Made by a program: the position numbers and the translations under genes. From a virus (lineage: Duplodnaviria > Caudoviricetes), in the IMG/VR virus record IMGVR_UViG_3300021420_000004, positions 1 to 62,116 of that record: a stretch of DNA of 62,116 bases. One strand, 5' to 3'. Numbering within the stretch: the first letter of the stretch is position 1; each line of letters opens with the position of its first letter. The notes under the pieces were generated by a model. That model searched no databases, had not been told where the DNA came from, and worked only from the letters and a program-made list of their open reading frames with translations. Below, piece after piece: positions 1 to 62,116 of this stretch.

Positions 1-127
1 TCTCGCACACTCTCGATAAGCACCCTCCCACGGGAGAGCAATTCCTGTGCCTGCTCCAACTGAGAACTGGATGAGCCGTATTTGAGTGTCTGTAAATCCA
101 TCCCTTGCATCTTCATCGAGACTTGCA
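1..127. repeat. terminal overlap identical to 61990-62116 (circular assembly)
   Basis: Exact 127-nt match to the window end; the polymerase frame reads through the join. Confidence 0.95.
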
Positions 128-885
128 GACTCGAAAGTTTCGATGTCGTAACTAAGCACAAATTGACTGCTTGACTCAACCCGATCCACAAATCCTCGTA
201 CATCATCAAGACTTGGGCGTGTGTCATACGCGATCTTGCCATTGCGGACTCCTTCCTCTAAATCCCATATCCATTCCCGGTCCTTCCCCGATGCGACGTT
301 GATCGCACGCTGGAGGTTGCGGGAGAAGAATCCTTGGTACGCCGCCTTGCCTCGGCGGATGAACGCGGGATGGTAGGCGGGGATCACGGGGATCGTCCTA
401 TAGGGCGGCGGCTCCATACTATCCGCCCAATGCTGCCCCGGCCCCTTCAGGACATATCCGCAAAGATGCCCCACCCCTCGTGCTTCCCCCGCCTCCCCCG
501 TCAACTCCCGCAACGCCGTATCCCCCAGCGCCAAAATCGCCTTGGGCCTGCGCTCGGCAATCGCCACGTCCAGATTCGGTCGGCAATGATTCAGCGCGGA
601 GAATTCCCACGGCGATCCTACGAGAAAGTTATTCTTCGGTCGGCAGCGTAGGCAATTCGTCCATGAGAACTGCGCTCGGGATAGGCCCATGCGAGTGAGC
701 GTGCGTTGAACGACGGATCCCGCTGGCGCATAAGGGACTAAGGGGATGCCTTCGCGGGCTTCCATCTCACCGGATGCTTCCGCTACTATCATCACCGACA
801 GCGATCCGGTGCCATCGACGCGGGTGAAGTCGGTGCCGTGGGAGGCGCAAGAGCAACCTTCGCAACTGAGAGGTTTCTGTCGCAT
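1..885 (-). CDS. N-terminal part of DNA polymerase A: family-4 UDG-like domain plus start of 3'-5' exonuclease (continues at 61989-60109; about 921 aa in total)
   Basis: Hand translation from ATG 885: MRQKPLSCEGC..VMIVAEASGEMEAREGIPLV..TNCLRCRP..ILALGDTA..AYHPAF..LSYDIET; in frame with the PolA ORF across the overlap. Confidence 0.9.
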   Translation of the reverse strand, partial: MRQKPLSCEGCSCASHGTDFTRVDGTGSLSVMIVAEASGEMEAREGIPLVPYAPAGSVVQRTLTRMGLSRAQFSWTNCLRCRPKNNFLVGSPWEFSALNHCRPNLDVAIAERRPKAILALGDTALRELTGEAGEARGVGHLCGYVLKGPGQHWADSMEPPPYRTIPVIPAYHPAFIRRGKAAYQGFFSRNLQRAINVASGKDREWIWDLEEGVRNGKIAYDTRPSLDDVRGFVDRVESSSQFVLSYDIETFESASLDEDARDGFTDTQIRLIQFSVGAGTGIALPWEGAYRECAR

Positions 886-1267: not shown

Positions 1268-1500
1268 TTATGACTCTCCAATAAAAGTATCGCTCGATCA
1301 TGATTGACCAGCCAGACAGCAAACTTCGTCATAATCCTCATAATCTCGGGAGCAGTGATTAGTATCTCGGGCCACTGCTGTGGTGGGCCACCTACCCGCG
1401 CAACGGATGTCGTCAGGATATATGGCATAATAACTCCTCCATCCTCAATGAGGAATGACGCGGCGTCTTTAAGGAGATCGTCGGCGTAGACTACAGCCAT
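1264..1500 (-). CDS. hypothetical protein
   Basis: Coupled to the helicase stop and to the next gene. Confidence 0.6.
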   Translation of the reverse strand: MAVVYADDLLKDAASFLIEDGGVIMPYILTTSVARVGGPPQQWPEILITAPEIMRIMTKFAVWLVNHDRAILLLESHK

Positions 1501-2933
1501 CGCTGTATCCTTTCATCCGCCTTACAATGCATCACAAACCTCTCCCGCTGTCCCACGATCCTCAACCCTTCCAAGGTCCGGCATCGGCTGAGCGCGACGT
1601 ACAACATACCCGGATGCGAGAAGAAGGAGTTGCGAATGTCCACCTGGAGCTTATCGAGGGAGAGCCCCTGAGACTTATGTACAGTAGACGCATAAGCCAA
1701 TCGCACCGGATAATATTCCACTTGCCCGATCACATACTTCCCCTTTCCGTCCCGATGCTCTCCCGCGTACCATCCGTCCTGCCTTAGCGTGGAATCCCAC
1801 CGCTCCGGCTTATCCTTCACCGCAACGGATCGCACCAGCTTAGGAACGCTAACAACAGCGCCAGTACGCACAAGACGGATATCGAGAGAGTACGTTCCGA
1901 CGGACTCCACATGGCCGCAGTCTCCGTTCACCCAAGGGAACTTTCCGGTTTCGTCGTCGATCTTGGCATTGGAAAGGATCATCACATAGCAGCCTTCCTT
2001 GAGGATGAGGTTGAACGGGATCGACTTCCATTCGGATCGCTGCTGGCCCCAGCGACGGCTGCTGACTGTGAACTTCGCTCCCTTATGCCCATCCAGCTTC
2101 AGTTGATTAAACCGATCCACCTGGTCGTTCTTCGGCACCAGGGTGGTCCCGTCGTAATCCGTGTCCAAGGCCGTCTCCCAGCGGACGCCGACGGAGGAGA
2201 GGACTTCCGCCGCCGGTCCTCCTTGGCCGCGACGGGCGAAGTTGAGCGCTTGGAGGAATTCCTGCTGGTCCTGCCGCCAGATGCGAGTGAGCCGCGTCGT
2301 ATGGGCGTCGAAGTGCTCCCAGCACTCCGCCTCGAATGCGAACTTGGCCTTCACCGGAGGGAGCTGCGCGAAGTCCCCTACGAGGACGATCCCCATCGGG
2401 GATTTAATATCCGCATAGTCGTTCGCCTGCTGGAGCCCGCGATAGATGAGGTCGAGCTGGAGGCCGTCGATCATGGAAACTTCGTCGATCACCAGCCAGC
2501 GGAACTCCAATGCCAGTTTGTGCAGCGCCGTCGTAAGGCGTCCGGTGAGATAGTTGTCACGAAGACCGTCAGAATCGAAGTAACCTAAAAGGCTATTTAT
2601 TGTGACCGCCGAAAGGTTGACCGCCGCGATCCCCGTGGACGCGCTTAGGATTCCGTAGGAAGGGTCGGCCTCGATCCGTCGCTTGATCTCGAAGGTTTTG
2701 CCGCAACCGGCGCTCCCGCAGAGGAATTCGCAGGGTACGACTCCGCCATCGGGAGCCACTTCTTCCGCCATCGCTTGATCGAACTCCGGCTGCATTTCAG
2801 CTCCTTCGCCATCAGATATTCGTTCCCCTTGCATTTCGCCAGCGCGTCGAGGTAGTTCAGCCGGATCGCCTCCTTCATTGGAGTCACCGGGGCGAGGGGG
2901 ACGCGGATAAGTCGCTTGTTCGGGGCCATTCAC
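1491..2933 (-). CDS. PIF1/RecD-like SF1B DNA helicase (true start may be ATG 2771)
   Basis: GSAGCGKT, IDEVSM, GDFAQLPPV, VNGDCG, TVHKSQGLSL, YVALSR motifs. Confidence 0.92.
   Translation of the reverse strand: MNGPEQATYPRPPRPGDSNEGGDPAELPRRAGEMQGERISDGEGAEMQPEFDQAMAEEVAPDGGVVPCEFLCGSAGCGKTFEIKRRIEADPSYGILSASTGIAAVNLSAVTINSLLGYFDSDGLRDNYLTGRLTTALHKLALEFRWLVIDEVSMIDGLQLDLIYRGLQQANDYADIKSPMGIVLVGDFAQLPPVKAKFAFEAECWEHFDAHTTRLTRIWRQDQQEFLQALNFARRGQGGPAAEVLSSVGVRWETALDTDYDGTTLVPKNDQVDRFNQLKLDGHKGAKFTVSSRRWGQQRSEWKSIPFNLILKEGCYVMILSNAKIDDETGKFPWVNGDCGHVESVGTYSLDIRLVRTGAVVSVPKLVRSVAVKDKPERWDSTLRQDGWYAGEHRDGKGKYVIGQVEYYPVRLAYASTVHKSQGLSLDKLQVDIRNSFFSHPGMLYVALSRCRTLEGLRIVGQRERFVMHCKADERIQRWL
2645..2929 (-). 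CDS. Fis-type helix-turn-helix protein overlapping the helicase 5' end
   Basis: ALAKCKGNEYLMAKELKCSRSSIKRWRKK resembles the Fis/NtrC HTH pattern AL....GN...AA..LGISR.TL.R. Confidence 0.6.
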   Translation of the reverse strand: MAPNKRLIRVPLAPVTPMKEAIRLNYLDALAKCKGNEYLMAKELKCSRSSIKRWRKKWLPMAESYPANSSAGAPVAAKPSRSSDGSRPTLPTES

Positions 2934-3267: not shown

Positions 3268-4005
3268 TTACTTGTTATGCGGCGTCTCCAAGGGCCAAAA
3301 TTGGACGATCCTCGCCTGCGCCCGCACCTGCGACTTACACACTGGGCACGCGGTCACCGGGTCATGCCCGCCGGACCGCAGTTGTGCGAATCGGTGCATC
3401 CCCAGCAGGAACGGCTTCGGCGCTCGATCCCCTTTCTTCTTTGCCACGTCGCCGCAGGTCATACATTGCGCTTCCCAAGCGGTCTCGACCACGATCTCCG
3501 GTTCCGCCGCGAGCACCTTCAGGAATTGCTCCATGCGTGCGCCGGGAGTGGCTGGGACCAGCGGCTGCTTTAGCTTCACAAGGATGGTGCCGATCTGCGA
3601 GTTGCCGGATCGCTCGACGACCGTCTTGACCCAATACTCAGTCAGCTTCACGCCGTCGTGCTTGCCCGAGGAGTCAAGGATCGTGCATTCCATGTTGGTC
3701 GCCAGAAATGGCTTGCCGTCGTTCATCTTGGGATAGCAGAACGCCGCGAATCGCTGAAGGTTTCCTTTGGAGTCCTTGATATCCACCTGCTTCAGCTTGG
3801 CCCGCCATTTGCCGTCTGGTAGCGGAGGAGGGACGGCGTAGGCATCGCCAGCCGGATTCTCGCTTAGTTGCTCCGACATCAGCCGGGGATCATTCAGGTC
3901 AATTACCTCTGCCGCCTGCGCCGATCCATTCGCGCCGTGGGTTGTGGTTGCGGAGGCTTCTGAAGGCCCCCCTTCATAGGTGGGTTCAAACGATGGTGTA
4001 CTCAT
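3268..4005 (-). CDS. putative ssDNA-binding protein (DUF669-like) with zinc finger
   Basis: GGAGG SD before MSTPSFE; PPLPDGKWRAKLKQVDIK; CMTC...CPVC; directly downstream of the Sak4-like gene. Confidence 0.65.
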   Translation of the reverse strand: MSTPSFEPTYEGGPSEASATTTHGANGSAQAAEVIDLNDPRLMSEQLSENPAGDAYAVPPPLPDGKWRAKLKQVDIKDSKGNLQRFAAFCYPKMNDGKPFLATNMECTILDSSGKHDGVKLTEYWVKTVVERSGNSQIGTILVKLKQPLVPATPGARMEQFLKVLAAEPEIVVETAWEAQCMTCGDVAKKKGDRAPKPFLLGMHRFAQLRSGGHDPVTACPVCKSQVRAQARIVQFWPLETPHNK

Positions 4006-5057
4006 TTGGTTACAGCCTCCTTGGGAATAGAAATTCGTGCAACGCCTGACGTGCCAGAGAGCAGACGACCAAGCCGCTGATCCATCTTTTCGCGCCAGCC
4101 TTTCAACGACTCCGACTGCGATTGATCCTTCGACAACTTGTCGCAGAGATGAAGATAGGAGTCGAATCCATGCTCGACCGTCGGCTCGAAGTATCCATAG
4201 GGATACTCCTTCGAGAACTCCTTGATCTTCTCCGGCGGGATGCGTGGCTTCGCCGGGAACATGATCCCCGTCGCCGGATCGGGATGCTTCTTGAAGTACA
4301 TCCGCACGGTGGTATCGACGATGATGGTCTCCAAGGGGTCGCCGCCCTCGGGGTTGGGTACTTTGACCGGACGCTTGATTGCATAATCCTGCGCGTGAAT
4401 ACAATCACCGACCCACGACGGGCAAGCGGCGGTGGCCTTCTTACCCGCAATGGATGGGCCGTAGATCGTCGAACGGTCGTCGTCCTCGGCTTTCGACTCC
4501 AGCGCGGTAAAGAGAACATAGCGCACCGGCAGGGAGAGGAACTGGGTGGTTAGCGCATAGAGCTGATTCTGGACGAAGCCGAAGTGGTTCTGCGTCGAGG
4601 GACCGAACTTCTCTTCTTTCCACTCTCCGTTGACTTGAATGGGCACGTTGAACAGGCCGGTGTAATCATCCTTGCCGAACTTTAACCCTTTGTCAGCTGC
4701 GTAGCGCATCAACATGTTTGACAGAGACGACCAGCCTTCCACGGCAATCCCACCGATCTCGTTCCAGTCCATCGGCTTCATGTTGATCTTCGTCGGGTCT
4801 ATCTCCGAGGTATCTTCGGGCCAGTAACCTTGGCTGATTTTACGAATCATGGGGAGAGGAAGGACCGCCGCCTCGCAGCGGTAGGCACGGATCATGCCAG
4901 CCTCGACCTCTGGTTCGCACGGCCCCCAGCCCCCGCCGTCCGACGAGAACAGGCAGGTAGATTTGCCAGTGGTCTCAGCTATATAGTGGGAGAACTGCTT
5001 GACCATGCCAGTTTTCCATGAGCCGGAAGGTCCGTAGATAACCCCGCTTCTAGCCAC
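4002..5057 (-). CDS. Sak4-like / AAA_24 ssDNA-annealing ATPase
   Basis: N-terminal VIYGPSGSWKT Walker A; VLFTALE..IYGPSIAGK..PSWVGD. Confidence 0.8.
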   Translation of the reverse strand: MARSGVIYGPSGSWKTGMVKQFSHYIAETTGKSTCLFSSDGGGWGPCEPEVEAGMIRAYRCEAAVLPLPMIRKISQGYWPEDTSEIDPTKINMKPMDWNEIGGIAVEGWSSLSNMLMRYAADKGLKFGKDDYTGLFNVPIQVNGEWKEEKFGPSTQNHFGFVQNQLYALTTQFLSLPVRYVLFTALESKAEDDDRSTIYGPSIAGKKATAACPSWVGDCIHAQDYAIKRPVKVPNPEGGDPLETIIVDTTVRMYFKKHPDPATGIMFPAKPRIPPEKIKEFSKEYPYGYFEPTVEHGFDSYLHLCDKLSKDQSQSESLKGWREKMDQRLGRLLSGTSGVARISIPKEAVTK

Positions 5058-10515: not shown

Positions 10516-10680
10516 CTACTTAAAGTTGACAAGCTCAATCAGGTCCTTACATGCGAGAATAATCTCGCAGGCGCGGCGCTCGGGAGTCTTGCGATGTACG
10601 TCACCTTTGATGGAGGGATAAGCGTCCCCTAGATAATAGGAGACACGTCCCAGCAAACTATAAGCTTCCCAAGGCGTCAC
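10516..10680 (-). CDS. small hypothetical protein (54 aa)
   Basis: GTGA coupling to the Cas4-like stop; fills the gap. Confidence 0.4.
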   Translation of the reverse strand: MTPWEAYSLLGRVSYYLGDAYPSIKGDVHRKTPERRACEIILACKDLIELVNFK

Positions 10681-12278
10681 GATTTTTCTCCAGTTGATAG
10701 TGCAGCGGCGAGTCGTTCCGCTTCGTGATTACAGGTCCGGGCGACAAAGCGCCCCGTCGCCATCGGATCGCGCCGCACGTCTTCGCCACCATAACACACT
10801 TTCACGAAGGCGCATTCAGTGGGGTAGGAGCAAGCTTTCCGCGTTTTTCTGAACTTACGATTCAGCAAACTACGCCGCTCTCCGTCATCGACTGCGGATT
10901 CTACCAGAGCCACGTTTTCCGCGATCTCCGTCTCTTGCTCCTCTATTTCCTCCATAAAATCTCGAAGATCGTCATCGTTGCGATACACGGTAATCGGTGG
11001 AATAAAAACCGCGTCCAAGGGATGCTGACTCGTGTATCCAAGCGCCTGCGCGGAGGACTTCCATCCCAGAGGTCGCGGCTCCATGCCCACGGTCGAGTCG
11101 AACGCGGACATCGCCTCTTGGGAATCATCCAGCCGGTCGATCCATCGCTTCACGTCGTCCACCGGCTCTGGCTTCCAATGGCCGTAGTAGAGATTCGTCG
11201 CGCCTCCATCTTCCTTGATGTAGTCGTAGGACCAGCATTCGTCGCCAAGGTTGAAGGCAGATCCCTTCGCCGCTGTGCCTCGCGCCACATAACGACGGAT
11301 CAGGTGAGACTTCTGCGAGCGAACCTCGAAGCCGAACCGCGCTGACAACTCTTTATCCTTCCAGCGCTCCCCCTTGAGCATGTATTCGTAGCGGATGCCA
11401 AGGATGCGGGGCGGGGCGGGGAGTCCATGAAGGTAAACAGCTATACGGGGATCACACTCTAACCCATTACCATGATGAATGTCCGTCCACCAGTTCTGTA
11501 ATCGCCGCTCCACCTCCACTCCCTCGCTCAATCCCTGCATATCATGCTGCGCGTCCAGCTCCTTCCGGCGATCCCAGCTCGCGGCGGTCTTGAACGACAT
11601 GAGATACAGACTGTTATCCGAACGGGATCGCAGCAGTGCATCAGGACGGGAGCAGAATACAATCGCCGCGCCGTCGCGCCGGTCATCCTCGTAATACTTA
11701 TCGGGATCGACATGCGCCAACTCCCAAGTCCCCTCCCGCTCCACCTCCAGCACCTCGAACTCCTCCAGCAACGGTCGCAGCCGCCGTCTGGCATACGCCC
11801 GCACCAGCCCCTCAACCAGCGCGGACTGCTCCTTCCACAGATACTCGTCGAACTGGGATTGCCCGTTCGCTTGCGTGTCGTACAGCGCCTTCAACGTGGG
11901 ATCGTCGATCTCGACTCCCAGCTCCGAGGCCGTCGCCGTCATCTGCTGCTGAAGGTCGGTCGGCGCGGTCATCGCCGCCTGCTCGTTGGGATCGACGGCG
12001 AGGGCGTTGCGGTATTGCGCGAGGTCGGCTATCGCCAACTCCACCGCCGTATCTTCAATCGACGGCAGCGAGACGTTTATATCGTCGATGTTCGACGTGC
12101 TATAAGCGACCAGTAGCGTCTCCAATCCTTTGTGAACCGCCCCACCAACCGCGAGCGGCAACGGCTTCCTCGCTGGCGTCAATCCCACGCCCGACTGGTG
12201 GTATTCCAGCCAGCGGAGGCGATTGCAGCGCTGGAAGCTCTCGATGCGACTTCTATCGGTGAATACGGCCCGCGTCAT
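10677..12278 (-). CDS. Cas4-like PD-(D/E)XK exonuclease-family protein
   Basis: SRIESFQRC..LAVGGAVHKGLE..LEVERE..SRPDALL..MSFKT; C-terminal CSYPTECAFVKVC. Confidence 0.8.
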   Translation of the reverse strand: MTRAVFTDRSRIESFQRCNRLRWLEYHQSGVGLTPARKPLPLAVGGAVHKGLETLLVAYSTSNIDDINVSLPSIEDTAVELAIADLAQYRNALAVDPNEQAAMTAPTDLQQQMTATASELGVEIDDPTLKALYDTQANGQSQFDEYLWKEQSALVEGLVRAYARRRLRPLLEEFEVLEVEREGTWELAHVDPDKYYEDDRRDGAAIVFCSRPDALLRSRSDNSLYLMSFKTAASWDRRKELDAQHDMQGLSEGVEVERRLQNWWTDIHHGNGLECDPRIAVYLHGLPAPPRILGIRYEYMLKGERWKDKELSARFGFEVRSQKSHLIRRYVARGTAAKGSAFNLGDECWSYDYIKEDGGATNLYYGHWKPEPVDDVKRWIDRLDDSQEAMSAFDSTVGMEPRPLGWKSSAQALGYTSQHPLDAVFIPPITVYRNDDDLRDFMEEIEEQETEIAENVALVESAVDDGERRSLLNRKFRKTRKACSYPTECAFVKVCYGGEDVRRDPMATGRFVARTCNHEAERLAAALSTGEKS

Positions 12279-12568
12279 TTCCCCACCCGATCCACGACCA
12301 CCTCGCACTGCACAATCTGCGCCGCAATCCCCTGTGACAACTTGCCAGGACCGTCCAGCCGCACGAACGTGCGCCCCTCGTCCTCAAGGTTGTATGATCC
12401 CCGACTCACCGAATACAATTCGAATTTATCGGGGGCCGTGGACGTAATCTGCCATACCTCAAAGTACCCAGTCGTGGTAGAGTCCTCACACACAATCCCC
12501 ACGCGCCGCAACACGTCGCGGCCCTTAGGATGCAACTCAACGTATGTGCCCGCCTTGATTTCTGTCAT
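12275..12568 (-). CDS. hypothetical protein
   Basis: Coupled on both sides; GGAGG SD. Confidence 0.65.
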   Translation of the reverse strand: MTEIKAGTYVELHPKGRDVLRRVGIVCEDSTTTGYFEVWQITSTAPDKFELYSVSRGSYNLEDEGRTFVRLDGPGKLSQGIAAQIVQCEVVVDRVGK

Positions 12569-12774: not shown

Positions 12775-12924
12775 GTGTTATTTTCGCTCACCTGTGGAAA
12801 TACTTTATAACATTCACCATCCGCTACAGTTACGAAGACACAAATTTACAATATTTTCACTATTCTCTTGACTCCGAGGGGTGATAAGATGTAGTCAACA
12901 GAAGGTTGCCTGAGCAACGAAATC

Positions 12925-12996
12925 CCTGCGTGAGCAGGCCGGTTTACATGGGAGTGTCCGCCGGTCTGCTCAGCGTAGGAGAAAACTGGACACTCC
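12925..12996 (+). ncRNA. candidate structured 5' leader (hairpin plus pseudoknot)
   Basis: Stem 12925-12942/12961-12979; loop GGAGTGTCC is complementary to GGACACTCC at 12988-12996. Confidence 0.5.
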
Positions 12997-12998
12997 GA

Positions 12999-14279
12999 AT
13001 GGCTACTACGCCGTCGTGCATCTCCGCTAACGATCCAGCCATCACCAATCAGATCCTAAACGAGAATCCCAACGGCGATTCCTACGAATCCCAACGCAAG
13101 CGCCAACGCGATCCTTACTTTTTTGAACGCGACGCCTCTGGCGCGTGGCGAATCGTATCCTGGCTCGAACCTCGCGTCCATCGTGAGCAGCGTGAAGTCG
13201 CGCTCCAACTCCTCCGCGATCACGGCTGGATCGCCCGCGCTGACGCTATCGTGTCCTGTGGCCGCGCATTTATTCCCTTCAAGGGCTGCCTTGAAAAAGG
13301 TCCTGACGGGCGCTGGCACGAACTCCATGCCGTCGTGGGATTCTGCAATACCGCTTTCTGTTCTTATTGCTCTGATCCTAAGCGCAGATTAGATCATTTT
13401 CTAAACCTTGACCACAATCGCGTCATCCATTCTATCTACGCGATAACAAACACGCTCTCAGCTCGTGGGCTCCCCACATCAGTCAAGCGAATCGTCGTAG
13501 CCTCCAGAACCACCAAGACCACCAAAGGGCTAGGTATTCGTCAGCGTCAAGAAATCCTACAGAAGCAAATCGACCGATGGCGCGAGCGTGTTTGTCGCCA
13601 GTATGGAATCGGCACCGAGGAGCACGGGCTGCTTATCGCCGACGGCCTTCGTAAGGGGGGGGCCAGCGCTAAGATATTCTACGTAGGCCCCGACATTTCT
13701 GATTCCTTCCTGCGTGACACTTGGAAGGAAATCGTCGGAATTGGCTGGGAGTTCGATATAGACAGTGCCACCATTTGCGCCCACGAAATAGCGACCGACG
13801 AAATCGGCTGTCGCGGAATGGTCGAAGCAGAACTTCAGCGTCTCATGGAGGCCAATCACCAATTCGTCGCAATACGCAAGCCAAAGGAGCTGGCGGAACT
13901 ACATGTCATGTTCCGTAATTATCGAATGGTGCGCCGGATAGGATCGTTTTATGGCCAGAAGATCGTAAGCGATTCGGAGCAGATTACCGATATCGAGTCA
14001 TCCGAGATGACTGAGGCCGAAATCAACGCTGCCATAAACGCTATGCCCGTCGTTCCATCGGAGCTGGGATTGTGTATTACCTGTCAGGCTCCCCTAGTTG
14101 CGCTTATCAATCATAAGCCTAGCAATTACCAAGACTTAGACTCTAAGGCGATGCAGGTTAAGTATTACAAACCGAAGGAGCGTCAGGAACATAAACATAG
14201 TACCGTACATAAGTGTCCAGCCGACAGCAGATTGAGAGGAGATGTGAAGGCACTTATGAGCCAATCGCCGCCGTCCTGA
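12999..14279 (+). CDS. degenerate HUH rolling-circle Rep-like zinc-binding protein
   Basis: RADAIVSCG..C..H..FCNTAFCSYC; L..TW...G..FDI; YRMVRRIGSFYG; CITC; HUH and catalytic YxxK not present. Confidence 0.6.
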   Translation: MATTPSCISANDPAITNQILNENPNGDSYESQRKRQRDPYFFERDASGAWRIVSWLEPRVHREQREVALQLLRDHGWIARADAIVSCGRAFIPFKGCLEKGPDGRWHELHAVVGFCNTAFCSYCSDPKRRLDHFLNLDHNRVIHSIYAITNTLSARGLPTSVKRIVVASRTTKTTKGLGIRQRQEILQKQIDRWRERVCRQYGIGTEEHGLLIADGLRKGGASAKIFYVGPDISDSFLRDTWKEIVGIGWEFDIDSATICAHEIATDEIGCRGMVEAELQRLMEANHQFVAIRKPKELAELHVMFRNYRMVRRIGSFYGQKIVSDSEQITDIESSEMTEAEINAAINAMPVVPSELGLCITCQAPLVALINHKPSNYQDLDSKAMQVKYYKPKERQEHKHSTVHKCPADSRLRGDVKALMSQSPPS

Positions 14280-14341: not shown

Positions 14342-14902
14342 CTATCCCCATTGTTCGGCCATAGCCTCTGCGATCCCCGGCAAGGTACGGCTACGTTCCT
14401 TCCAGCGATCAGGGCCCGGCGAAGCATGATGTACTCGTGGCGTCCGGCCTTCTACTATATTCGTAGGAACCAGTTTGGGTAGTCCTTTGAGCCACAAGCA
14501 GGTCGCCTTTGTCTCGCCATGTCCGAATTGCCACGGCTGAATGATCTGGTCGGGTTTCCGCCATTTTGTGCTTAGCACACCAATGGGATTTTCGATGGCC
14601 CATTTTTTGATAAGCGCGTTGTTTGCCAGCCAGCACTTGACAAATCGCAGCGCCTCTTTCTGCGGCTCAACTCTATTTTTGAACCACCTAGCACCGCTCA
14701 CAGCCAAGTAAGTGCAAGGCGGATGAGCGATCATCAAATCCCAGCAGCTCCACATGAACCAGTCTTCCTTAAGGTCCAACTGCATATGGAATTTACTGCC
14801 GTCTTCTGCTGGCAAAAGATCACACGACCAAGCATCATGGCCTCGCCCGCGAAATGCTTCCCGAACGATGCCAGAGAACTCACACGCCACCAGAACTCTC
14901 AT
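14342..14902 (-). CDS. phage DNA cytosine methyltransferase-like protein
   Basis: MRVLVACEFSG, AWSCDLLP, IAHPPCT, IENP, QPWQFGH, RSRTLPGIA.AMAEQWG. Confidence 0.85.
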   Translation of the reverse strand: MRVLVACEFSGIVREAFRGRGHDAWSCDLLPAEDGSKFHMQLDLKEDWFMWSCWDLMIAHPPCTYLAVSGARWFKNRVEPQKEALRFVKCWLANNALIKKWAIENPIGVLSTKWRKPDQIIQPWQFGHGETKATCLWLKGLPKLVPTNIVEGRTPRVHHASPGPDRWKERSRTLPGIAEAMAEQWG

Positions 14903-45591: not shown

Positions 45592-46038
45592 ATGGCAACG
45601 CAGTCGGTTGAGATAGATGAGTATGGACCGGATTGGCCGTTAGGATTGATTGCGGTGGTTACGCCAGGGACGCCCGTGTCGATCATGTCGCTGGTCGATC
45701 CTTCGGCGGTCAACGCTCCGAACAATCCCACGCCGACCGGGACCGATACCGAGTTTGAATATTCCCCGTCGGTCCAGCAGATTGCGTTCCTCGCCGTCAA
45801 AGCAGGCGCGTCACATGGCACCCAGAATAACACGGGGAATATCTATATCGTCCGCAAGGGCGTGCAGGGCGCGGGCAACCGGGACGACTACGGCGCGATG
45901 GTCTGGGCGTTGGGACCGGGGCAGAATTTATTCCTATCGTCGGCTCCGTTGGAGCGGAACGTGTTCTCTCCTTATCGTTATTACATTGACGCTGACAATG
46001 CTGGGGATAGTTGCCTAGTGACGTTGCTAATCGCATGA
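45592..46038 (+). CDS. virion structural protein (putative)
   Basis: GGAGG SD; NTGNIYI..YYIDADNAGD. Confidence 0.65.
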   Translation: MATQSVEIDEYGPDWPLGLIAVVTPGTPVSIMSLVDPSAVNAPNNPTPTGTDTEFEYSPSVQQIAFLAVKAGASHGTQNNTGNIYIVRKGVQGAGNRDDYGAMVWALGPGQNLFLSSAPLERNVFSPYRYYIDADNAGDSCLVTLLIA

Positions 46039-49000: not shown

Positions 49001-51773
49001 TGGCACGTTCAAGGGGATCGCCAACAATCCATTCCAGACCTGCATGTGGGTCGATGGCACGCAATCCTTTTGGAATGGCGGGACGCACTGCGAAGACGCC
49101 AGCATCGGCGTGGACGTGGGTGAGAATAATAAAACGCTCGGCGTTCACATCAATGACTTCCACGCGTCCAACTTCACCAGCGACACGGTTATCAAGTTCG
49201 GCTCGAACACACAGCAGAGCCAAGCGCATGTGATCGAGGTACAGACTTCGGGGAATACCCTGCTGAGTGATGTCAACGGGGCGGGGACGAATGGATGCGG
49301 ACTATCCTCGTGCTCCTACGCTTCCACTTCCGGCGATCTGATCTTGCAGGATTATGTGCAGGCGACCACGACGGGATCGACGTTTGGGACGCTCATCACG
49401 CCCAGTCTGACGATCAACGGCGCAACGAGCGGAACCGGGACCATCGGCGCTACAGCGACAGGAGGGACACTAGAGCTGAACGGCACGACAGCGGAGATCA
49501 CTTCATCCGGCGGCGCAACCTTTGCCAGCCTTACCGACACCGGCGTCACCGGATCAACGCAGTGCTTACAGGCCAATTCTTCGGGAGCCATTAGCGGCAC
49601 CGGAGCCGGATGCGGAAGCGGCGGATCGGTGACCAACTTCAGCGCGGGGAACCTATCGCCGCTGTTTACGACCAGCGTAGCGACATCGACGACCACGCCC
49701 GCGCTGACGTTCACCGCAAGCAACGCCGCGTCAGGGACCTTCCTTGGCAATAACACAAACGCCAGCGCCGCGCCCGCTTATGCGACACTGAGCGCGATCA
49801 ATCCTCAGACGACTACGTATCAGGTACTTGCAGCGGATTTCGCAGCATACAAGACTATCGCCGTAGCGTCGGGATCATTCACGATCACTCTCGTCGCCAG
49901 TGGAAGCCAGCCAGCGGCGGGGCAGTACATCAACGTCGTGAATTACGGCACTGGCACGGTGACCATTGCTCGGAGCGGACAGAGCATCAATGGCGCAAAC
50001 AGTTCCATCGTATTGAGTCCCGGCACGTCGATCAACTCCACCGGAGCGACGATCTGGTCGGACGGTACGAACTACGTCGCAGCAGTCGATGAGGATAACG
50101 CAGGCACGGGAACGGTTACCAGCGTAGCCACAACTTCCCCAATCACCGGAGGGACGTTTACCACCAGTGGGACGATTGCCTGTGCGACCTGTACTACGAG
50201 TGCGGCGGCAATCACGAATAACGTGATCCCAAAGGGAAGCGGCGGGGCACAAGGTATCGCCAACTCCTCAATCACGGACAACGGAACCACTATCGCCAGT
50301 GCAGAACAGATCGCCATCACGCAGACATCTGGGACATCAACAGGGTTCTCGCTCACCAATTCGACTGCCGCGACCAGTTCCGTCGCGCAGAGTTCCCCCT
50401 TCGACATCCGTACCGGGCAAACATGGCTGAATTATTTCCCGTCTACAAGTGGAGCATTCATCGCCGCCGCAAGTCAGGCTGATTGCTGGAGCCACCAAGT
50501 TACCGAGACGAATGGAACGAACGGGTCGAGTATCTACGTCCTGCTTCACAACAGCGCGGCGGATAATTGCCAAGGGAGTCCAGCCAACTCCTATCTTCAA
50601 ACTCCATTTGAATATAACTGGGGTGTGCAGACGCAGAGCCTCGCCCAACCTTCAACACCAGCCATTACTTGTTCTCCTACTTGCGCCTCAAGTCATACTT
50701 GGACCTATGAAGTCGCGGCCTGCACGGGCCCTGGCTGCACTCAGCCATCTGTCACAGGAAGCACTACGACCGGAGTTGCAACTCTGAGCACGAGCAGCTA
50801 CAACATCATCACTTGGTCGGTGACGCCGAATGCGGATTATTACAAGCTCTATCGCACGGTCTCTGGAGGAACACCATCGACGCTCGGCATAATCGCTGTC
50901 ATTCCATCCGGCTCAACCGCTTCAGGCGCGAGTTGCAGTTCGAGTACGTGCGTGGTCAACGATGAGGCGCTTGCTGGAGATACGACCACAGCGCAAGCCT
51001 ACAACTCTTCTGGCCAAGTTTATGTCGGCACCGGACCAGCAGTCGGCGGAGGCACGGGCGGCGGTATGTTTGGAACTGGCGGCACGGTTCCGAGCACACT
51101 AAGCGCGACTGCGGCAGGGTGGTATGTGGATGCTAACGATCTTTTCCATGTCGTAAACAGCACGACGGATGAGGGCGTTGCGCCTATTGGATGCTTATCA
51201 AAATGCTCCTTCGTGGTAGGAGCGCCGGGAATTTCTCCCGGTGAGAGCGTGGTCACAGGTGTAGCGGCAGGCAACACGGCTCTCTATACCCACTGGTATC
51301 GTTTTTACAATGATGTCACTCGCAAGCTAGGAACTACGTGCTTGACGGGCGTACAAACCGTTCTTGCCAGCGATCACCTTCATGCCGGAGTTTACTCCTT
51401 CAATGGGTCCAGCATCAGCGCAGCTCCGGTGTGGGATTGTGGTCAGCAATCAACCGCAACTGCCGGACAGGTTGCGAACACTTCCGTAACCGCATATACG
51501 ATGAGTCCGGGGTATTACTATATTGCTTTTTGTGCGGACACAGCCGCAACCTTCATCCCCTATGTCCTGCTCAACACCACAGCAGCAGCCAGTGGAGCAG
51601 CTACTTTCGGCGGCGGCGGCAGTCAAACGGCGCACAATATCGGCGTAGATTCGACCGATGTCTGCACAGCCGCCGCCGCAGCCTTACCATCCAGTCCGGC
51701 TATCGCCAATATCTCATTCACGGCTGGAACTACCGTGGTAGATGTGCCTTACATCGTGAGCGTGAATCCATGA
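46035..51773 (+). CDS. giant fibre/spike-like protein with signal peptide (about 1912 aa)
   Basis: MRHLKLILALLLLSTMAVG|Q; Thr/Ser/Gly-rich fibre repeats (VTNAMLANS.IT), many Cys pairs, beta-helix-like middle. Confidence 0.75.
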   Translation: MRHLKLILALLLLSTMAVGQSSSGGGSGLPNATGVSQCLLSLANGSPASIWGSCSGSASTNWSALVAGTNTAGGNYLVGAGSAINTTSTGTINATGLNFGATGITLGTAPTSSQVLEYNGTNIVGLTLAAGSGLNYSAGTFSIPALGVTNAMLANSAITVQGQSTSLGGSVNINSVTTAHGVALNEGAATQLGGTAVGATGTVLLGNTGADPSFGAVPNANLANSTITIAGTSVALGGSTSSLPSPGAIGGTTPAAGNFTTLGATSNLTTNVTGGGTQCLQASNTGVVSGTGSACGSGGGSPITVNGGSALTGTVNLQNGSAVDGITINASNPSASNVAFAISGSLTNAGLANSSITTSCTSPLNCSGSVALGGSNTFNFITTPLTGQGLVATNGSQPSFSSPGVQDSVNSPVTSASYTLACDSGTALVDRAHLVRFQSGASTPVVPLSTASGCTGGFVTTVFDDGAGSLVFGRTSPDTFSVFNGSTASDGQTSFTLTNGQYATLTQGASGIWEVRVTSAGTGLAGSISTNQVAYATGTNTVGGFSLPVGDWVAGTSTNPIAQAKTWVDIRDANPAIAGDFCDALNYLGNLYGTGVWIDATNPGGYLDTTGGIDRVYCTHGPWGAIPPATFTNYTNLGAGFQFNIKLGNYQIVSGDAWWIPSGANFVYGAPQSASASPLNGTVILPCYGSTNASSLITTCTNNSTLGAGATIPAVTTTPNIAVGGPFIANTVCDSTTANADNGFSSCGTINGYNGSTVTVSCTAANPAVCTASGGTPFVSGDAGGWFISCATSGSPSAACPSLTNAAYQYVSSYQSSTQITLAGTWAGATATALQAWTIIRPNEWCFLCVGMIGQQNNSFAHEFRDFRVDTEGVPHGIGIYSQNAQERVAFLDVPVSLNFAIYNTEPITTNPGSDSCWVFDRNYATSSLGSNNAGPNHPSMTLGECDVTNGQGTTRATAQSNPPIGGVASMWSYGRGNGTDFQNGMWDPGTFKGIANNPFQTCMWVDGTQSFWNGGTHCEDASIGVDVGENNKTLGVHINDFHASNFTSDTVIKFGSNTQQSQAHVIEVQTSGNTLLSDVNGAGTNGCGLSSCSYASTSGDLILQDYVQATTTGSTFGTLITPSLTINGATSGTGTIGATATGGTLELNGTTAEITSSGGATFASLTDTGVTGSTQCLQANSSGAISGTGAGCGSGGSVTNFSAGNLSPLFTTSVATSTTTPALTFTASNAASGTFLGNNTNASAAPAYATLSAINPQTTTYQVLAADFAAYKTIAVASGSFTITLVASGSQPAAGQYINVVNYGTGTVTIARSGQSINGANSSIVLSPGTSINSTGATIWSDGTNYVAAVDEDNAGTGTVTSVATTSPITGGTFTTSGTIACATCTTSAAAITNNVIPKGSGGAQGIANSSITDNGTTIASAEQIAITQTSGTSTGFSLTNSTAATSSVAQSSPFDIRTGQTWLNYFPSTSGAFIAAASQADCWSHQVTETNGTNGSSIYVLLHNSAADNCQGSPANSYLQTPFEYNWGVQTQSLAQPSTPAITCSPTCASSHTWTYEVAACTGPGCTQPSVTGSTTTGVATLSTSSYNIITWSVTPNADYYKLYRTVSGGTPSTLGIIAVIPSGSTASGASCSSSTCVVNDEALAGDTTTAQAYNSSGQVYVGTGPAVGGGTGGGMFGTGGTVPSTLSATAAGWYVDANDLFHVVNSTTDEGVAPIGCLSKCSFVVGAPGISPGESVVTGVAAGNTALYTHWYRFYNDVTRKLGTTCLTGVQTVLASDHLHAGVYSFNGSSISAAPVWDCGQQSTATAGQVANTSVTAYTMSPGYYYIAFCADTAATFIPYVLLNTTAAASGAATFGGGGSQTAHNIGVDSTDVCTAAAAALPSSPAIANISFTAGTTVVDVPYIVSVNP

Positions 51774-59091: not shown

Positions 59092-60133
59092 AGATGCTTA
59101 CTCCCTCGATACCTTTCAACGCTGTCCTCGGCGGTGGCTCCTCGAACGCTCGTGGCGCGTGATCCACTGGCGGCCTAAGTCTCTTTTCGACTCGTGTCTC
59201 CGTCAGGGTATTTTTCAAATATCCAACGGAAGCGATCCGGCAGCGGAGATCCAGAGGGCGCGGACGCGGTTCCTGTCGGCGGCGGCAAATCCGGGGCTGG
59301 ACCTGAGCGAGGGAGCGGATTCGTGGGTTGTGGCGAATGATTACGCCGGGATGCTTTCCACGACACTAACAGCAGTATCAAAATTGACACTATTAACAGT
59401 CCAGCGCCTATCAGTGTTGTCCCTACCAGAGCCATTTGCCACAGCGTCATGGTCCCCCCTCTCCTGGTCCGACGAATCCGGCACCCTCCACCGCTGGATC
59501 ACCGTCGATGCCTACGATTCTACTGTCCTCTCCCGCGAGGCGCATTCCTGGGCCGTGTTCGGCGACATCGTGACGCTCGACGCGCCACTCACCCTCCATG
59601 TTATATCCATCGGACAGCAACGTAACGGACGGCGGCACTCCCCGTGGGCCAGAGCCTATAAGCATCCAGTGATCGCCCATCGATATAAGTTTCAGCGGAA
59701 GAATTCCCGAGGACATGGGACCTCCCTCTCGGAGCAGTGGATACCGATCTGGTACGCCGACCAGCCCCAGCCCGATCCTGTGACTTGGGTCGATCTCATG
59801 GACTCCGACGGCATCACGCCGACCCTTCTTCATCACATACCCATCGCTCAACCGTCAGAGGCAGTGCGCCGCGATACGCTAGGCCAACTAAGTTCGCTGG
59901 CGACTCGTATGTCACGATTGGCGTCCGAGCATCCAGGGCCGTCGGATTTCGTTCTAGAACCGATGTCTCGTTCGGCGTGTGACTCCCTAGTACCTTGTCC
60001 ACACCAGGAATTGTGTTATCGAGAGCGACCGGGGGAGGGCATCGCCGCGCTGGGACTGCATCAACGCCGAGCAGCCGACGCATACGAACCTGAACGCCGT
60101 CGATTGGTTCAGCTTGCCACCATCGGAACTTGA
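59084..60133 (+). CDS. second, divergent Cas4-like protein
   Basis: SLDTFQRCPRRW N-terminus and CDSLVPCPHQELC C-terminus; no clear D..(D/E)xK. Confidence 0.65.
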   Translation: MVIDAYSLDTFQRCPRRWLLERSWRVIHWRPKSLFDSCLRQGIFQISNGSDPAAEIQRARTRFLSAAANPGLDLSEGADSWVVANDYAGMLSTTLTAVSKLTLLTVQRLSVLSLPEPFATASWSPLSWSDESGTLHRWITVDAYDSTVLSREAHSWAVFGDIVTLDAPLTLHVISIGQQRNGRRHSPWARAYKHPVIAHRYKFQRKNSRGHGTSLSEQWIPIWYADQPQPDPVTWVDLMDSDGITPTLLHHIPIAQPSEAVRRDTLGQLSSLATRMSRLASEHPGPSDFVLEPMSRSACDSLVPCPHQELCYRERPGEGIAALGLHQRRAADAYEPERRRLVQLATIGT

Positions 60134-62116
60134 ACATCGACCGCCTCCATTTGCGACCAGTTCGCGCCAAAGTTAGCTTCCACATCCACTGAGAGCCCGT
60201 CGGGGGCCAGCGTCGAATGAATCAGCACCTTCGACGGCGCGGTCAGGATAGGGTAGACCTCCGCGATATGCTGCTCACGCATCTCCCTTGGATAACAAAA
60301 CATCACCGAGTCGTGGATCGTATTCATCAGGCCATATCGCGCCGCCGCGCCGGATGAATCGAGCATCTTCATTGTCTCCCTTATATTCCCAAAGGCGTAA
60401 TTCGCAGGCAGGAACGCTACCGCTTCCTCCGCTTGGTCACCGTTTTTCCAGCCGCCGGACTTGTGATCCCAGACGAAGACTTCGTAGAAGCGGCGGATGT
60501 GGCCGAAGGGGGAGCGAAGGAAGGTTTGTTCGTGGGCGAGCTTTCTAATTCTAGCCTGCCAATCGAAGATCCTTGGATAGAGATGTTGTAAGAGATCGAG
60601 GAATGATTTTGCTGTACGCTCGTTGGGGAAGTGTTCCAGATTCTCTTGAAATAATCTACGAGCACCCATTCCAAATCCAACTCCAAGGATAGTTGGCTTG
60701 GCTTGTTTATCCCTGACACGTTTACGGTCACTGTCGCTTTTGAACCACGCAAATCGGTCAAGTAGAGAGGCATCATCTTCCTCCGCAATCTCCGGTTTCC
60801 AATCCTTCGTGAAGCACCCCGCCACGAACGAGTGCATATCCAGTCGCGCCATCCGCATGTACGAGGCGTCCTCGGCGCAGAATCCCGTCGTTAGCACATG
60901 GTAGGACTTGTAATCCCACTCCGACAACTCGTATCCATCCGGCGCGGCGATCATCTTTCGCAACTGTTTCGAGAGACGACCGTGCTTGGGGAAATTCTGA
61001 CAGTTTGGATTTCGAGAAGTCGTTTGTCCTGTACCCGTGTCGAAGGTGAACGTGGTATGCACTCGACCGTCGTCATGCGGCTTGAATCCATCGACGTAGG
61101 TCCCTCTCGCCTTCGACAGCTCCCGATACTCGATCACCTTCAGGTAGAAGGTATCGGAATGGCGTTGGGCAAGGCGGATCAGCTCTTTTTTCTCGGTGGT
61201 GTCCTTGGGCGAGCCGTCCTCGTTCTCACTCTTTTTGGACTTGGGTCGCTTATGGCCGCGAGCGTCCATGTATTTGAGAAGCTGTTGCCACGAGTTAGGG
61301 TTAAACGGTACGATTCTGCACCACCGTCTATGAAGTACGGTTGTAGGCTCACCGTCCATCCCAACGGTAGCTTCTTCAAACTCTCGCTCCACCAATCCCG
61401 CAAGGTCCTTCGGAGCTTTCCTGTATCCGTACTCATAATTCCCTTTCTTTCCACGTCGAGGCTCTAGTCCTAATACTTCGAGTGGAACTCGGGATTGTAA
61501 TTCGGCGTTTAGTTCCTGCTGCGCCAAGTCAAACTCCCCGTCCAGCTTCAATCGCTCGGCATCGTCCACCGGGAGCCCGCGATCCTCCATCGCCGCGAGC
61601 ACTGGCCTCACTTGTTGCACCTGTCCGATGTAGCCGCCGTCGTTCCATCCGTCCGGCGACCAGCGACCGCACCAGATTTGATCCTTCTGCAACATCGCCA
61701 CTAGGAAATTATAGAGCCGCAGCGTGGCATCCACGTCCACGCAACCGTAGAACTCTAGATCGGTCCCCGCCAGATGCTTCCACGGGAATGGGAATTGGAC
61801 GAACTGCGCGGCGAACTGGAGATGCGCCGGGAGGTCCGGTTGCCAGTGGTGGAACATTTGCAGGGTGTCATGGATCGTGCCACGAGGGGTTAGGTCGAGC
61901 CCTTCGCGCTCCCCGGCGGCTCGAAGGACTCTGTTATCGAAGAGCCAGAGGTTGTGGCCGCACTTAGTATTGGGAGTGTGGAGTAGGCGTCTCGCACACT
62001 CTCGATAAGCACCCTCCCACGGGAGAGCAATTCCTGTGCCTGCTCCAACTGAGAACTGGATGAGCCGTATTTGAGTGTCTGTAAATCCATCCCTTGCATC
62101 TTCATCGAGACTTGCA
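60109..62116 (-). CDS. DNA polymerase family A, exonuclease and polymerase domains (5' part at 885-1)
   Basis: GHNLWLFD, HDTL, TGTGQTTSRNPNCQNFP, WDYKSYH, DMH, KQAKPTILGVGFGMG, SPFGHIRRF, TIHDS. Confidence 0.95.
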   Translation of the reverse strand, partial: ASLDEDARDGFTDTQIRLIQFSVGAGTGIALPWEGAYRECARRLLHTPNTKCGHNLWLFDNRVLRAAGEREGLDLTPRGTIHDTLQMFHHWQPDLPAHLQFAAQFVQFPFPWKHLAGTDLEFYGCVDVDATLRLYNFLVAMLQKDQIWCGRWSPDGWNDGGYIGQVQQVRPVLAAMEDRGLPVDDAERLKLDGEFDLAQQELNAELQSRVPLEVLGLEPRRGKKGNYEYGYRKAPKDLAGLVEREFEEATVGMDGEPTTVLHRRWCRIVPFNPNSWQQLLKYMDARGHKRPKSKKSENEDGSPKDTTEKKELIRLAQRHSDTFYLKVIEYRELSKARGTYVDGFKPHDDGRVHTTFTFDTGTGQTTSRNPNCQNFPKHGRLSKQLRKMIAAPDGYELSEWDYKSYHVLTTGFCAEDASYMRMARLDMHSFVAGCFTKDWKPEIAEEDDASLLDRFAWFKSDSDRKRVRDKQAKPTILGVGFGMGARRLFQENLEHFPNERTAKSFLDLLQHLYPRIFDWQARIRKLAHEQTFLRSPFGHIRRFYEVFVWDHKSGGWKNGDQAEEAVAFLPANYAFGNIRETMKMLDSSGAAARYGLMNTIHDSVMFCYPREMREQHIAEVYPILTAPSKVLIHSTLAPDGLSVDVEANFGANWSQMEAVDVQVPMVAS
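61990..62116. repeat. terminal overlap identical to 1-127
   Basis: Exact match. Confidence 0.95.

Follow-up and report, generated by a model that had tools for sequence, protein, structure and literature searches.

A phage lineage of UDG-exonuclease-PolA fusions with glutamine and histidine in place of the TGR arginine and the steric-gate glutamate of family A polymerases

The stretch of DNA analysed here, referred to throughout as the window, is the whole of IMG/VR virus record IMGVR_UViG_3300021420_000004 (Caudoviricetes), a complete viral record of 62,116 bp and 57% G+C. It encodes a DNA polymerase of family A (PolA) that is preceded, in the same polypeptide, by a proofreading exonuclease domain and an N-terminal domain resembling a uracil-DNA glycosylase (UDG), and in which the glutamate that acts in Escherichia coli DNA polymerase I (E710) as the steric gate against ribonucleoside triphosphates (rNTPs) is replaced by histidine. 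Judged by its sequence, the enzyme belongs to a large and so far undescribed UDG-exonuclease-PolA lineage of uncultured phages, which is defined by Gln at the position of the TGR-motif Arg and by His at the steric gate. On balance we lean towards the view that it is a proofreading replicase that selects deoxyribonucleoside triphosphates (dNTPs) with an imidazole in the role of steric gate.

The polymerase gene and its active site

The first 127 bases of the record are identical to its last 127 (an exact repeat, 1-127 and 61990-62116) and lie inside the polymerase coding sequence; because of this repeat the polymerase frame is continuous across the record ends. The gene occupies the minus strand, runs from an ATG at 885 to base 1, resumes in frame at 62115 and ends with a stop codon at 60109-60111. 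When the genome was searched against itself, 1-126 on the minus strand matched residues 1-42 of P0001, the translation of the open reading frame (ORF) that holds the 3' part. The joined product is a protein of 921 amino acids (P0002), both ends of which equal the two window translations. The length of the repeat would fit a k-mer overlap left by the assembler on a circular or circularly permuted genome rather than physical ends. The features of the gene, numbered by the residues of P0002 and with E. coli equivalents in brackets, are as follows.

1..885, minus strand: 5' part of the polymerase gene, with the ATG at 885; its translation equals P0002 residues 1-295
340..804, minus strand: family 4 UDG-like domain, residues 28-182 (PF03167, E 4.5e-15)
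139..147, minus strand: exonuclease motif I, D247-I-E249
60109..62116, minus strand: 3' part of the polymerase gene, P0002 residues 254-921 and the stop, with exonuclease motifs II and III and the entire polymerase domain (ORF translation)
61936-61953, minus strand: exonuclease motif II (N308, D313)
61735-61749, minus strand: exonuclease motif III (Y376, D380)
61024..61026, minus strand: Gln617, at the position of the TGR-motif Arg (R668)
60892..60915, minus strand: motif A, DYKSYHVL, residues 654-661, with catalytic D654 (60913-60915) and H659 (CAT, 60898-60900) at the steric-gate position (E710)
60919-60921, minus strand: codon of E652, just upstream of motif A and two residues ahead of D654
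60670..60714, minus strand: motif B (O-helix), RDKQAKPTILGVGFG, with R721 (R754), K726 (K758; 60697-60699), L730 (F762; 60685-60687) and F734 (Y766; 60673-60675)
60304..60318, minus strand: motif C, IHDSV, with H854, catalytic D855 and S856 (60307-60309), the last replacing E883

Membership of family A is indicated by a match to PF00476 (DNA_pol_A) at 89.9 bits against a Pfam cut-off of 34.3, and the polymerase falls in phrog_17, DNA polymerase, of the PHROGs collection (E 2.7e-56). The presence of PF03167 and PF00476 within one product is the architecture of a UDG-PolA fusion.

The original prediction, made from the letters of the window, was that motifs A and B of this polymerase carry altered sugar-gate residues, with H, F and L standing at the positions of E710, Y766 and F762. 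Both motif strings that it quoted are exact in the sequence, on the minus strand inside 60660-60920, that of motif B being KQAKPTILGVGFG within 60670-60714, and the three assignments are borne out by alignment to two reference enzymes. A phmmer comparison with KlenTaq pairs LSEWDYKSYHVL with LVALDYSQIELR and DKQAKPTILGVGFGMGA with RRAAKTINFGVLYGMSA. A family profile built from an alignment of 141 sequences (A1) matches Klenow at E 5.5e-40 and, under hmmsearch, pairs D705 with D, E710 with H, K758 with K, F762 with L and Y766 with F, in agreement with the KlenTaq pairing. The equivalences are thus D654 to D705, H659 to E710, R721 to R754, K726 to K758, L730 to F762, F734 to Y766, H854-D855 to H881-D882 and S856 to E883. 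Further upstream in the protein the profile reads 'atgQlss' where Klenow reads 'ATGRLSS', which places Gln617 at R668, a residue for which a contact with the incoming sugar's ring oxygen has also been reported. In motif 6, residues of Glu/Ala/Asn type take the places of R841, N845 and Q849, the register here being uncertain by one residue in either direction.

D654, D855, R721, K726 and H854 are invariant in A1, so that the catalytic aspartates and the O-helix Arg and Lys by which family A is recognised are all in place. The pair formed in family A by the Glu gate and Tyr766 is absent, its positions being taken by His659 and Phe734, as is the TGR-motif Arg, which is replaced by Gln617. Motif A contains no acidic residue besides E652 and D654. 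That the nucleotide pocket is remodelled, as had been proposed, is upheld by H659, Q617 and L730 together with the altered motif 6.

An AlphaFold2 model on the family alignment (pLDDT 94.5, pTM 0.92) finds its best solved-structure matches, by Foldseek, in Klenow (1kfs, E 3e-26), Bst and Taq (to 1e-23). In this model the strand 648-655 has D654 at its end and the helix 658-666 has H659 at its start; E710 presumably occupies the same place in the Klenow structure, at the start of the helix that follows the motif A strand.

The exonuclease residues D247, E249, D313, Y376 and D380 are near-invariant in A1, and D313 and Y376/D380 align with Klenow residues that we take to be D424 and Y497/D501. 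As to the UDG-like domain, the family profile matches the Thermotoga maritima UDG 1L9G at E 2e-31, and in an alignment to the Sulfolobus tokodaii UDG 4ZBX the domain retains the uracil-contacting Asn (Asn77) and the HPA motif. In the same alignment AEASG stands in place of GEAPG, and Leu, with a 2-residue insertion, in place of the uracil-contacting Phe of the PF element, and for these two reasons it is uncertain whether the domain has glycosylase activity. Among its cysteines, C81 and C101 are near-invariant in A1, and C8 and C11 belong to the family consensus and align with two Cys of 4ZBX; the four are presumably the ligands of the iron-sulphur cluster of family 4 UDGs. Taken together, the metal-binding aspartates, the equivalents of R754 and K758, the exonuclease residues and the UDG-like domain would mark the protein as a replicative DNA polymerase.

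Conservation of the gate position across the lineage

A word-based search scored 4,713 candidates, of which 1,144 proved to be relatives at E <= 0.001; the majority of the 120 that were listed have both Pfam domains and lie on contigs of ~55-65 kb. When 50%-identity representatives were searched exhaustively, the matches at E <= 1e-30 came to 583 clusters. The gate column is His in 118 of the 120 close homologues and, wherever the region aligns, in all of the best 150 of the 583 cluster representatives. When the rows were pooled, 262 of 267 had His at the gate, the remainder being two with Phe, one fragment without the region and two misaligned rows that bear inteins. Phe is the only natural replacement of His that was encountered, in P0055 and P0057, both of which are full-length and otherwise intact. 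The IMG/VR loci related to the window tell the same story: 59 of 60 have a match at the gate, with His in 58 and Phe in one. Gln617 is just as constant, being found in 262 of the 267 relatives and in 57 of the 59 loci. A further search, started from the divergent relative P0228 with 8000 word-sharing candidates scored, yielded 13 proteins. Twelve belong to the UDG-fusion lineage, and His is present in each of the nine that were new; the thirteenth is a canonical Pol I, in which TGR and DYSQIELR are found (E 2.5e-4), and no intermediate between Glu and His was seen among the proteins that this search returned.

Many of the homologues reach 1,100-1,700 residues and are matched in a number of separate stretches. 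Several show a break in the sequence directly behind the invariant Lys-Pro of motif B, followed by text resembling CIAEGELVLT, which looks like inteins placed in the active-site motifs; such breaks lie in motif B in P0122, P0125, P0134, P0154, P0176 and P0198, and in motif A in P0184 and P0245.

The contrast between the gate and the residues that surround it becomes clear on a tree inferred with FastTree from 203 of the 267 rows, namely those with at least 80% coverage and all catalytic residues (64 were dropped). The gate column changes once, from His to Phe. The F762 position (B3) changes ~16 times (L in 182 sequences, H in 14, others in 7), the Y766 position (B4) ~25 times (F121, N58, L21, Y3), and the third residue of motif C ~42 times, most members having HDS or HDA. 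The Glu-to-His and Tyr-to-Phe exchanges had been presented as a paired change; across these 203 sequences they part company, His being fixed while the B4 residue drifts. On the alignments, the fixed pair is instead R668 to Gln with E710 to His. The His gate pattern is far beyond chance and is, by the same evidence, a hallmark of the lineage and not a quirk of a single gene, which supports strong selection on the gate exchange throughout the lineage.

An additional regularity was noted among the acidic residues near the active site. Within the lineage, acidic residues at the E652 position and at the third position of motif C (HD[E/D]) are mutually exclusive: 166 of the 203 tips are acid/non-acid at these two positions, 18 non-acid/acid, 19 have neither and 0 have both, with ~15-25 state changes on the tree. 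This exclusion may reflect an accessory carboxylate that migrates between the two sites. The broader idea that Glu652 is a general replacement for the missing motif C Glu was weakened, because the polymerases of N4, SPO1 and MW202455 lack both acidic residues, and it is kept only as a pattern within the lineage.

Such reshuffling of accessory carboxylates, together with the HDS and HDA forms of motif C, would be in keeping with an explanation in which the Gln/His exchange mainly rebuilt the electrostatics of fingers closing and of fidelity, was fixed once in an ancestor and then frozen, and has little to do with the sugar. E710 of Klenow is indeed more than a gate, as it is described as stabilising the closed ternary complex and affecting fidelity (PMC3715850). 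A role in fingers closing is compatible with a gate role and does not exclude one, though, and a position that is conserved almost absolutely and admits Phe as its sole alternative points to packing beside the substrate; we regard the electrostatic explanation, taken by itself, as unlikely. For a selective imidazole gate, by contrast, the same substitution pattern is apt: since Phe is the only natural substitute for His, the role that fits is one of sterics or stacking and not of acid-base chemistry.

Comparison with other family A polymerases

The hydrogen bond that E710 makes with Y766 has been called invariant in A-family polymerases (PMC3715850), and in the available text of the 2023 reclassification of PolA the motif A position A2 is treated as highly conserved and the gate position and the TGR Arg as conserved across 19 clusters (PMC10201439). 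In the literature, parts of which were open to us, we found no natural His at a family A gate and none of the substitutions E710H, E615H, E658H, E480H or E895H, although a supplementary logo or table could show one; the accessible text of Nasko 2018 (PMC6302109) makes no mention of positions 710 or 766 or of uracil.

Compared with the large fragments of bacterial Pol I (Klenow, KlenTaq, Bst), to which identity is ~16-20%, the window's enzyme shares the exonuclease and polymerase fold, both catalytic Asp, R754, K758 and H881. It differs in having His for E710, Gln for R668, Leu for F762, Phe for Y766 and Ser for E883, in its remodelled motif 6 and in the added N-terminal UDG-like domain. No close structure was found in BFVD, where the best identity was 18%, to other long phage PolAs.

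The motif A Glu is kept in all seven of the other phage PolAs examined. Motif A reads GLDFASLEDR in N4 gp39 and FDYSQLELR in SPO1 gp31, and in two other UDG fusions it reads ADYSQIELR (MW202455) and EIDKNQLEYR (MW202554); tblastn alignments show the Glu also in Vibrio phage VHB1, phage DP SC_2_H4_2017 and Arthrobacter phage Amavida. Motif B is canonical, with Phe or Tyr at B3 and Tyr at B4, in the five of these for which it was taken from an alignment or a pattern match, namely N4, SPO1, MW202455, DP SC_2_H4_2017 and Amavida; no motif B was found for MW202554. The record of Mastigocladus phage CHP58 ends right at motif A, and this phage stands outside the comparison of seven.

The UDG-PolA enzymes described to date comprise an N4-like group with a dead UDG, an SPO1-like group and a new SP15-like group (PMC10201439, PMC13697223). 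By sequence and motif comparison the present lineage has the three-domain architecture of these groups and departs from each of them. N4-like enzymes (cluster 17, PMC10201439) likewise join an N-terminal family 4 UDG to an exonuclease and a polymerase in 800-900 residues, and their replication module likewise includes a superfamily 1 (SF1) helicase, a Sak4-like protein and an exonuclease. N4 gp39, however, keeps the Glu, the TGR Arg and the Phe and Tyr of motif B, where the window's enzyme has Leu730 at B3. The two do not cluster together, BLASTP giving only 22% identity over 209 residues, and tblastn of gp39 against the window reaches E 1e-5 over ~100 residues. In the N4-like group the UDG is said to have lost its catalytic elements, the hairpin with the His being deleted (PMC10201439), whereas the domain described here retains the HPA His, the Asn and the four Cys, its departures being AEASG and the replaced Phe.

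SPO1-like and SP15-like enzymes (Missoury et al. 2026, PMC13697223) resemble the present one in combining a UDG of largely conserved family 4 elements with a proofreading PolA, and HDS in motif C is common to SPO1 and this polymerase. SPO1 differs in keeping FDYSQLELR and KKIQFGIVYQ, and its similarity by tblastn is marginal (E 0.044 over the polymerase domain). The SP15-like enzymes are by description of much greater size, carry two inserts and a C-terminal domain, and come from phages with thymine-modification genes (PMC13697223). With 921 residues against 1306 in YerA41 and with no modification genes, the window's polymerase stands apart from this group, the inserts being a distinction by description, and neither a YerA41 nor a phiLo polymerase chain appears among the structure and profile matches listed. 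A different resemblance is to DpoZ of the 2-aminoadenine phages (clusters 18/19, PMC10201439), which shares Phe at B4 and, in the phiVC8-like cluster, Leu at B3; DpoZ differs in having no UDG fusion, and the window holds no PurZ-like gene.

These likenesses bear on the proposal that the altered pocket is an adaptation to a non-canonical nucleotide, that is, to phage DNA in which a base or sugar is modified, such as that of the thymine-modified phages of the SPO1-like and SP15-like groups or of the phages with DpoZ. UDG-PolA fusions with conserved UDG residues do occur in modified-thymine phages (PMC13697223), and Phe at B4 has been said to occur solely in the two DpoZ clusters (PMC10201439). 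The minor groove is contacted by R668 and Q849 and is reported to be read by R668 and the motif 6 residues (review, PMC10520511), and these are among the residues changed here. The MW202455 UDG-PolA adjoins genes annotated 'pyrimidine hmase synthase' and thymidylate synthase. His at the gate is not needed for thymine modification, though, as the enzymes of MW202455 and SPO1 keep Glu, Arg and Tyr, and within the present lineage B4 is not fixed as Phe. Modifications at C5 of a base also point away from the sugar pocket.

Nor does gene content support the modified nucleotide that the original prediction had suggested. We scanned the 71 ORFs of the window one by one, obtaining matches to 13 Pfam families at E <= 0.001 and to 34 PHROG families. 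None of the 13 belongs to nucleotide metabolism: the Pfam scan of the 71 ORFs gave no RNase H, ribonucleotide reductase or nucleotide-metabolism or modification family, and no thymidylate-synthase-like, dUTPase, deaminase, PurZ-like or glycosyltransferase family. An adaptation to a non-canonical nucleotide therefore appears improbable, and the exchange at the gate is better accounted for by a polymerase that selects ordinary dNTPs with a histidine.

Priming, sugar selection and the role of the histidine

Four genes recur beside the polymerase in related loci; they are listed here with a candidate nickase gene that lies farther off in the window.

1491..2933, minus strand: SF1 (PIF1/Dda-like) helicase, directly upstream of the polymerase in the direction of transcription (PF05970, E 2.4e-12)
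3268..4005, minus strand: conserved protein with a Cys-rich C-terminus, following the annealase gene; matched in 39 of 60 loci
4002..5057, minus strand: Sak4-like single-strand annealing protein (phrog_124, E 4.5e-7; weak AAA_24 match); 42 of 60 loci
10677..12308, minus strand: PD-(D/E)XK nuclease (ESM Atlas score 0.97 to PDDEXK_1 clusters, TM 0.67; weak match to phrog_1218, exonuclease); 36 of 60 loci
12906..14279, plus strand: candidate Rep_1-like rolling-circle initiator (nickase), a Cys-rich ORF of 457 residues (ESM Atlas 0.95, TM 0.47-0.52); a lead only

A PIF1/Dda-like helicase stands beside the polymerase in 45 of the 60 loci, and a match to phrog_325, Dda-like helicase (E 1.3e-56), for which the output of the PHROG scan named no ORF, is attributed to 1491..2933. 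The Cys-rich protein has no Pfam or PHROG match. The match in the 39 loci covers mainly residues 165-375 of a longer ORF (3268-4404, minus strand) that overlaps the Sak4-like ORF (4002-5057, minus strand) by ~400 nt in a different frame; because only these residues are conserved, the real start is probably an internal ATG near 4005, directly after the Sak4-like gene. The protein may be a single-stranded DNA-binding protein (SSB), since its gene follows that of the annealase as the SSB gene does in phage N4. The candidate nickase likewise has no Pfam or PHROG match, and no counterpart within 10 kb of the polymerase was found in the 60 related loci.

Elsewhere in the genome there are matches to a P22-like portal family, a large terminase subunit, Ig-like domains and a LAGLIDADG/HNH-type endonuclease, while two long ORFs on the plus strand, 39867-44390 and 46011-51773 (1,507 and 1,920 residues), have no PHROG match at E <= 0.01. 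An ORF of 186 residues at 14342-14902 (minus strand) is labelled 'DNA methyltransferase' by phrog_757 (E 8.7e-70) but was not counted as a DNA-modification gene. The Pfam scan gave one ORF, most likely this one, a match to the Acb2/Tad1 hairpin family (E 4.5e-12), and its product is probably a cyclic-nucleotide sponge acting against cyclic-oligonucleotide-based antiphage signalling systems (CBASS) or Thoeris and not a methyltransferase. Beyond viral records, a 2.5-Mb contig of an Acidobacteriota metagenome-assembled genome (MAG; locus L073, 5001-5510) carries a lone piece of 170 residues that corresponds to polymerase residues 205-371 at 64% identity, and two short MAG contigs, assigned to Terracidiphilus and to Solirubrobacterales, carry longer polymerase pieces. 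It is possible that the Acidobacteriota piece is a hint of the host or a prophage remnant.

The original prediction had found it notable that no primase was recognised in the genome. The absence itself stands at the level of Pfam and PHROG: there is no primase family among the 13 Pfam families or the best 25 of the 34 PHROG families, and Prim-Pol, Toprim_2 and Zn_ribbon_DnaG had 0 matches each in a six-frame Pfam search of the whole record, in which control genomes were positive. N4 differs in this respect in having gp43, and neither the N4 gp43 primase nor the SPO1 gp21.95 primase has a tblastn match in the window or the 60 related loci. A conserved ORF of 543 residues was considered as a primase and rejected, being a PD-(D/E)XK nuclease by ESM Atlas. 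The significance attached to the absence is another matter. Because the conserved neighbours are a helicase, an annealase and a nuclease, to which the Rep_1-like nickase can be added as a lead, the missing primase is not remarkable. Initiation that is recombination-dependent, nick-primed or host-primed is a sufficient and ordinary explanation, and nothing suggests de novo synthesis by the polymerase; priming is probably achieved by other means than this enzyme, namely a host primase, recombination intermediates or a nick.

The lack of a recognised primase is nonetheless one of the observations that could be marshalled for relaxed sugar selectivity, according to which the Gln/His/Leu pocket would admit a 2'-OH, to which the His would hydrogen-bond, so that the enzyme would use or extend rNTPs; this might help a phage without a primase, or replication in dNTP-poor cells. 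None of the three side chains for which an influence on the sugar of the incoming nucleotide is known or reported has its canonical identity. In Klenow, E710A lowers the barrier to rUTP (PMC3715850). F762 has been quoted as required for the full effect of the Glu gate (PMC13697223), and F762A broadens the acceptance of modified nucleotides (PMC13369328). Yet rNTP tolerance, the example given in the original prediction, would not follow from the histidine alone, as His is bulkier than Ala and is the proven and effective gate of PolD (PMC7708050), and Phe, the natural alternative in this lineage, cannot hydrogen-bond. The complete proofreading exonuclease and a UDG domain of the DNA-repair type are kept, the genome holds no RNase H-type family, and the genomes of the lineage were, as we infer, recovered by ordinary shotgun DNA sequencing. 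We thus consider relaxed selectivity rather unlikely.

The account that we favour is that dNTPs are still selected over rNTPs, as they are by the His gate of family D polymerases, and that the side chains around the sugar have been rebuilt as a set, Arg668/Glu710 becoming Gln617/His659 and Phe762 becoming Leu730. The imidazole of His659 would take over the task of Glu710, packing against C2' of the incoming dNTP so that a 2'-OH would clash with it, and a hydrogen bond from the ring to the 3'-OH is a further possibility. The position of Tyr766 would then have no hydrogen-bond partner and hence be free to vary, as is seen in the Phe of this enzyme and the Asn, Leu and Tyr of its relatives. That Arg and Glu should change jointly is structurally coherent, because in Bst the residues corresponding to R668, E710, Q849 and D882 are near neighbours with electrostatic interactions among them (review, PMC10520511). 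In exchanging Arg/Glu for Gln/His, the lineage would have remodelled the cluster around the sugar in a concerted and charge-neutral way, with Leu at B3 re-packing its floor. Phe at the Y766 position would in any case be a mild change, since Klenow Y766F behaves as the wild type (PMC3715850). The working precedent for such a gate is H931 of PolD, a proven His steric gate with ~2,300-fold dATP/rATP selectivity that is abolished in H931A, and whose ring has been proposed also to hydrogen-bond the 3'-OH; a His gate has been proposed for family C as well (PMC7708050). What the two enzymes would share is a His situated opposite the 2' carbon of the incoming nucleotide. PolD differs in having an unrelated fold, with a two-barrel catalytic core, so that the proposed likeness is functional and would be convergent.

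Several points weigh against this account. The Klenow variants E710A and E710Q are mutators in which the closed complex is destabilised or fails to form (PMC3715850); losing the carboxylate is thus no trivial matter for the enzyme, and the fidelity or substrate range of the lineage may differ from that of Pol I. Leu at B3 makes a smaller floor beneath the sugar, so that, with motif 6 altered as well, the pocket may be roomier than we assume. The lineage also has no close relative in cultured phages: among 50,697 phage records, tblastn found 145 that match, all in the band below 60% identity, with 20-28% in the 40 listed and a best identity <30% among the matches listed. There is a small chance that Gln617, His659 and Leu730, with the altered motif 6, could give the whole lineage a different sugar or minor-groove specificity, for example an ability to use ribonucleotides efficiently, or nucleotides with changes at the 2' position or on the minor-groove side. 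If that were true, it would mean replication without a conventional primase, or a genome chemistry not yet described.

The Glu gate and its bond to Tyr766 have been treated as invariant in family A (PMC3715850), and a large natural lineage does without both the Glu gate and the TGR Arg while keeping all of its catalytic and proofreading residues. The His at the gate position of this polymerase is, as the alignments have it, a natural variant of a textbook active site. Should His659 not work as a gate, the polymerase with which these phages replicate has an unusual substrate range. If it does, the lineage would represent a solution convergent with those of family D and possibly family C, and it would offer a natural scaffold for polymerase engineering, in which gate mutants are the usual entry to nucleotides with modified sugars.

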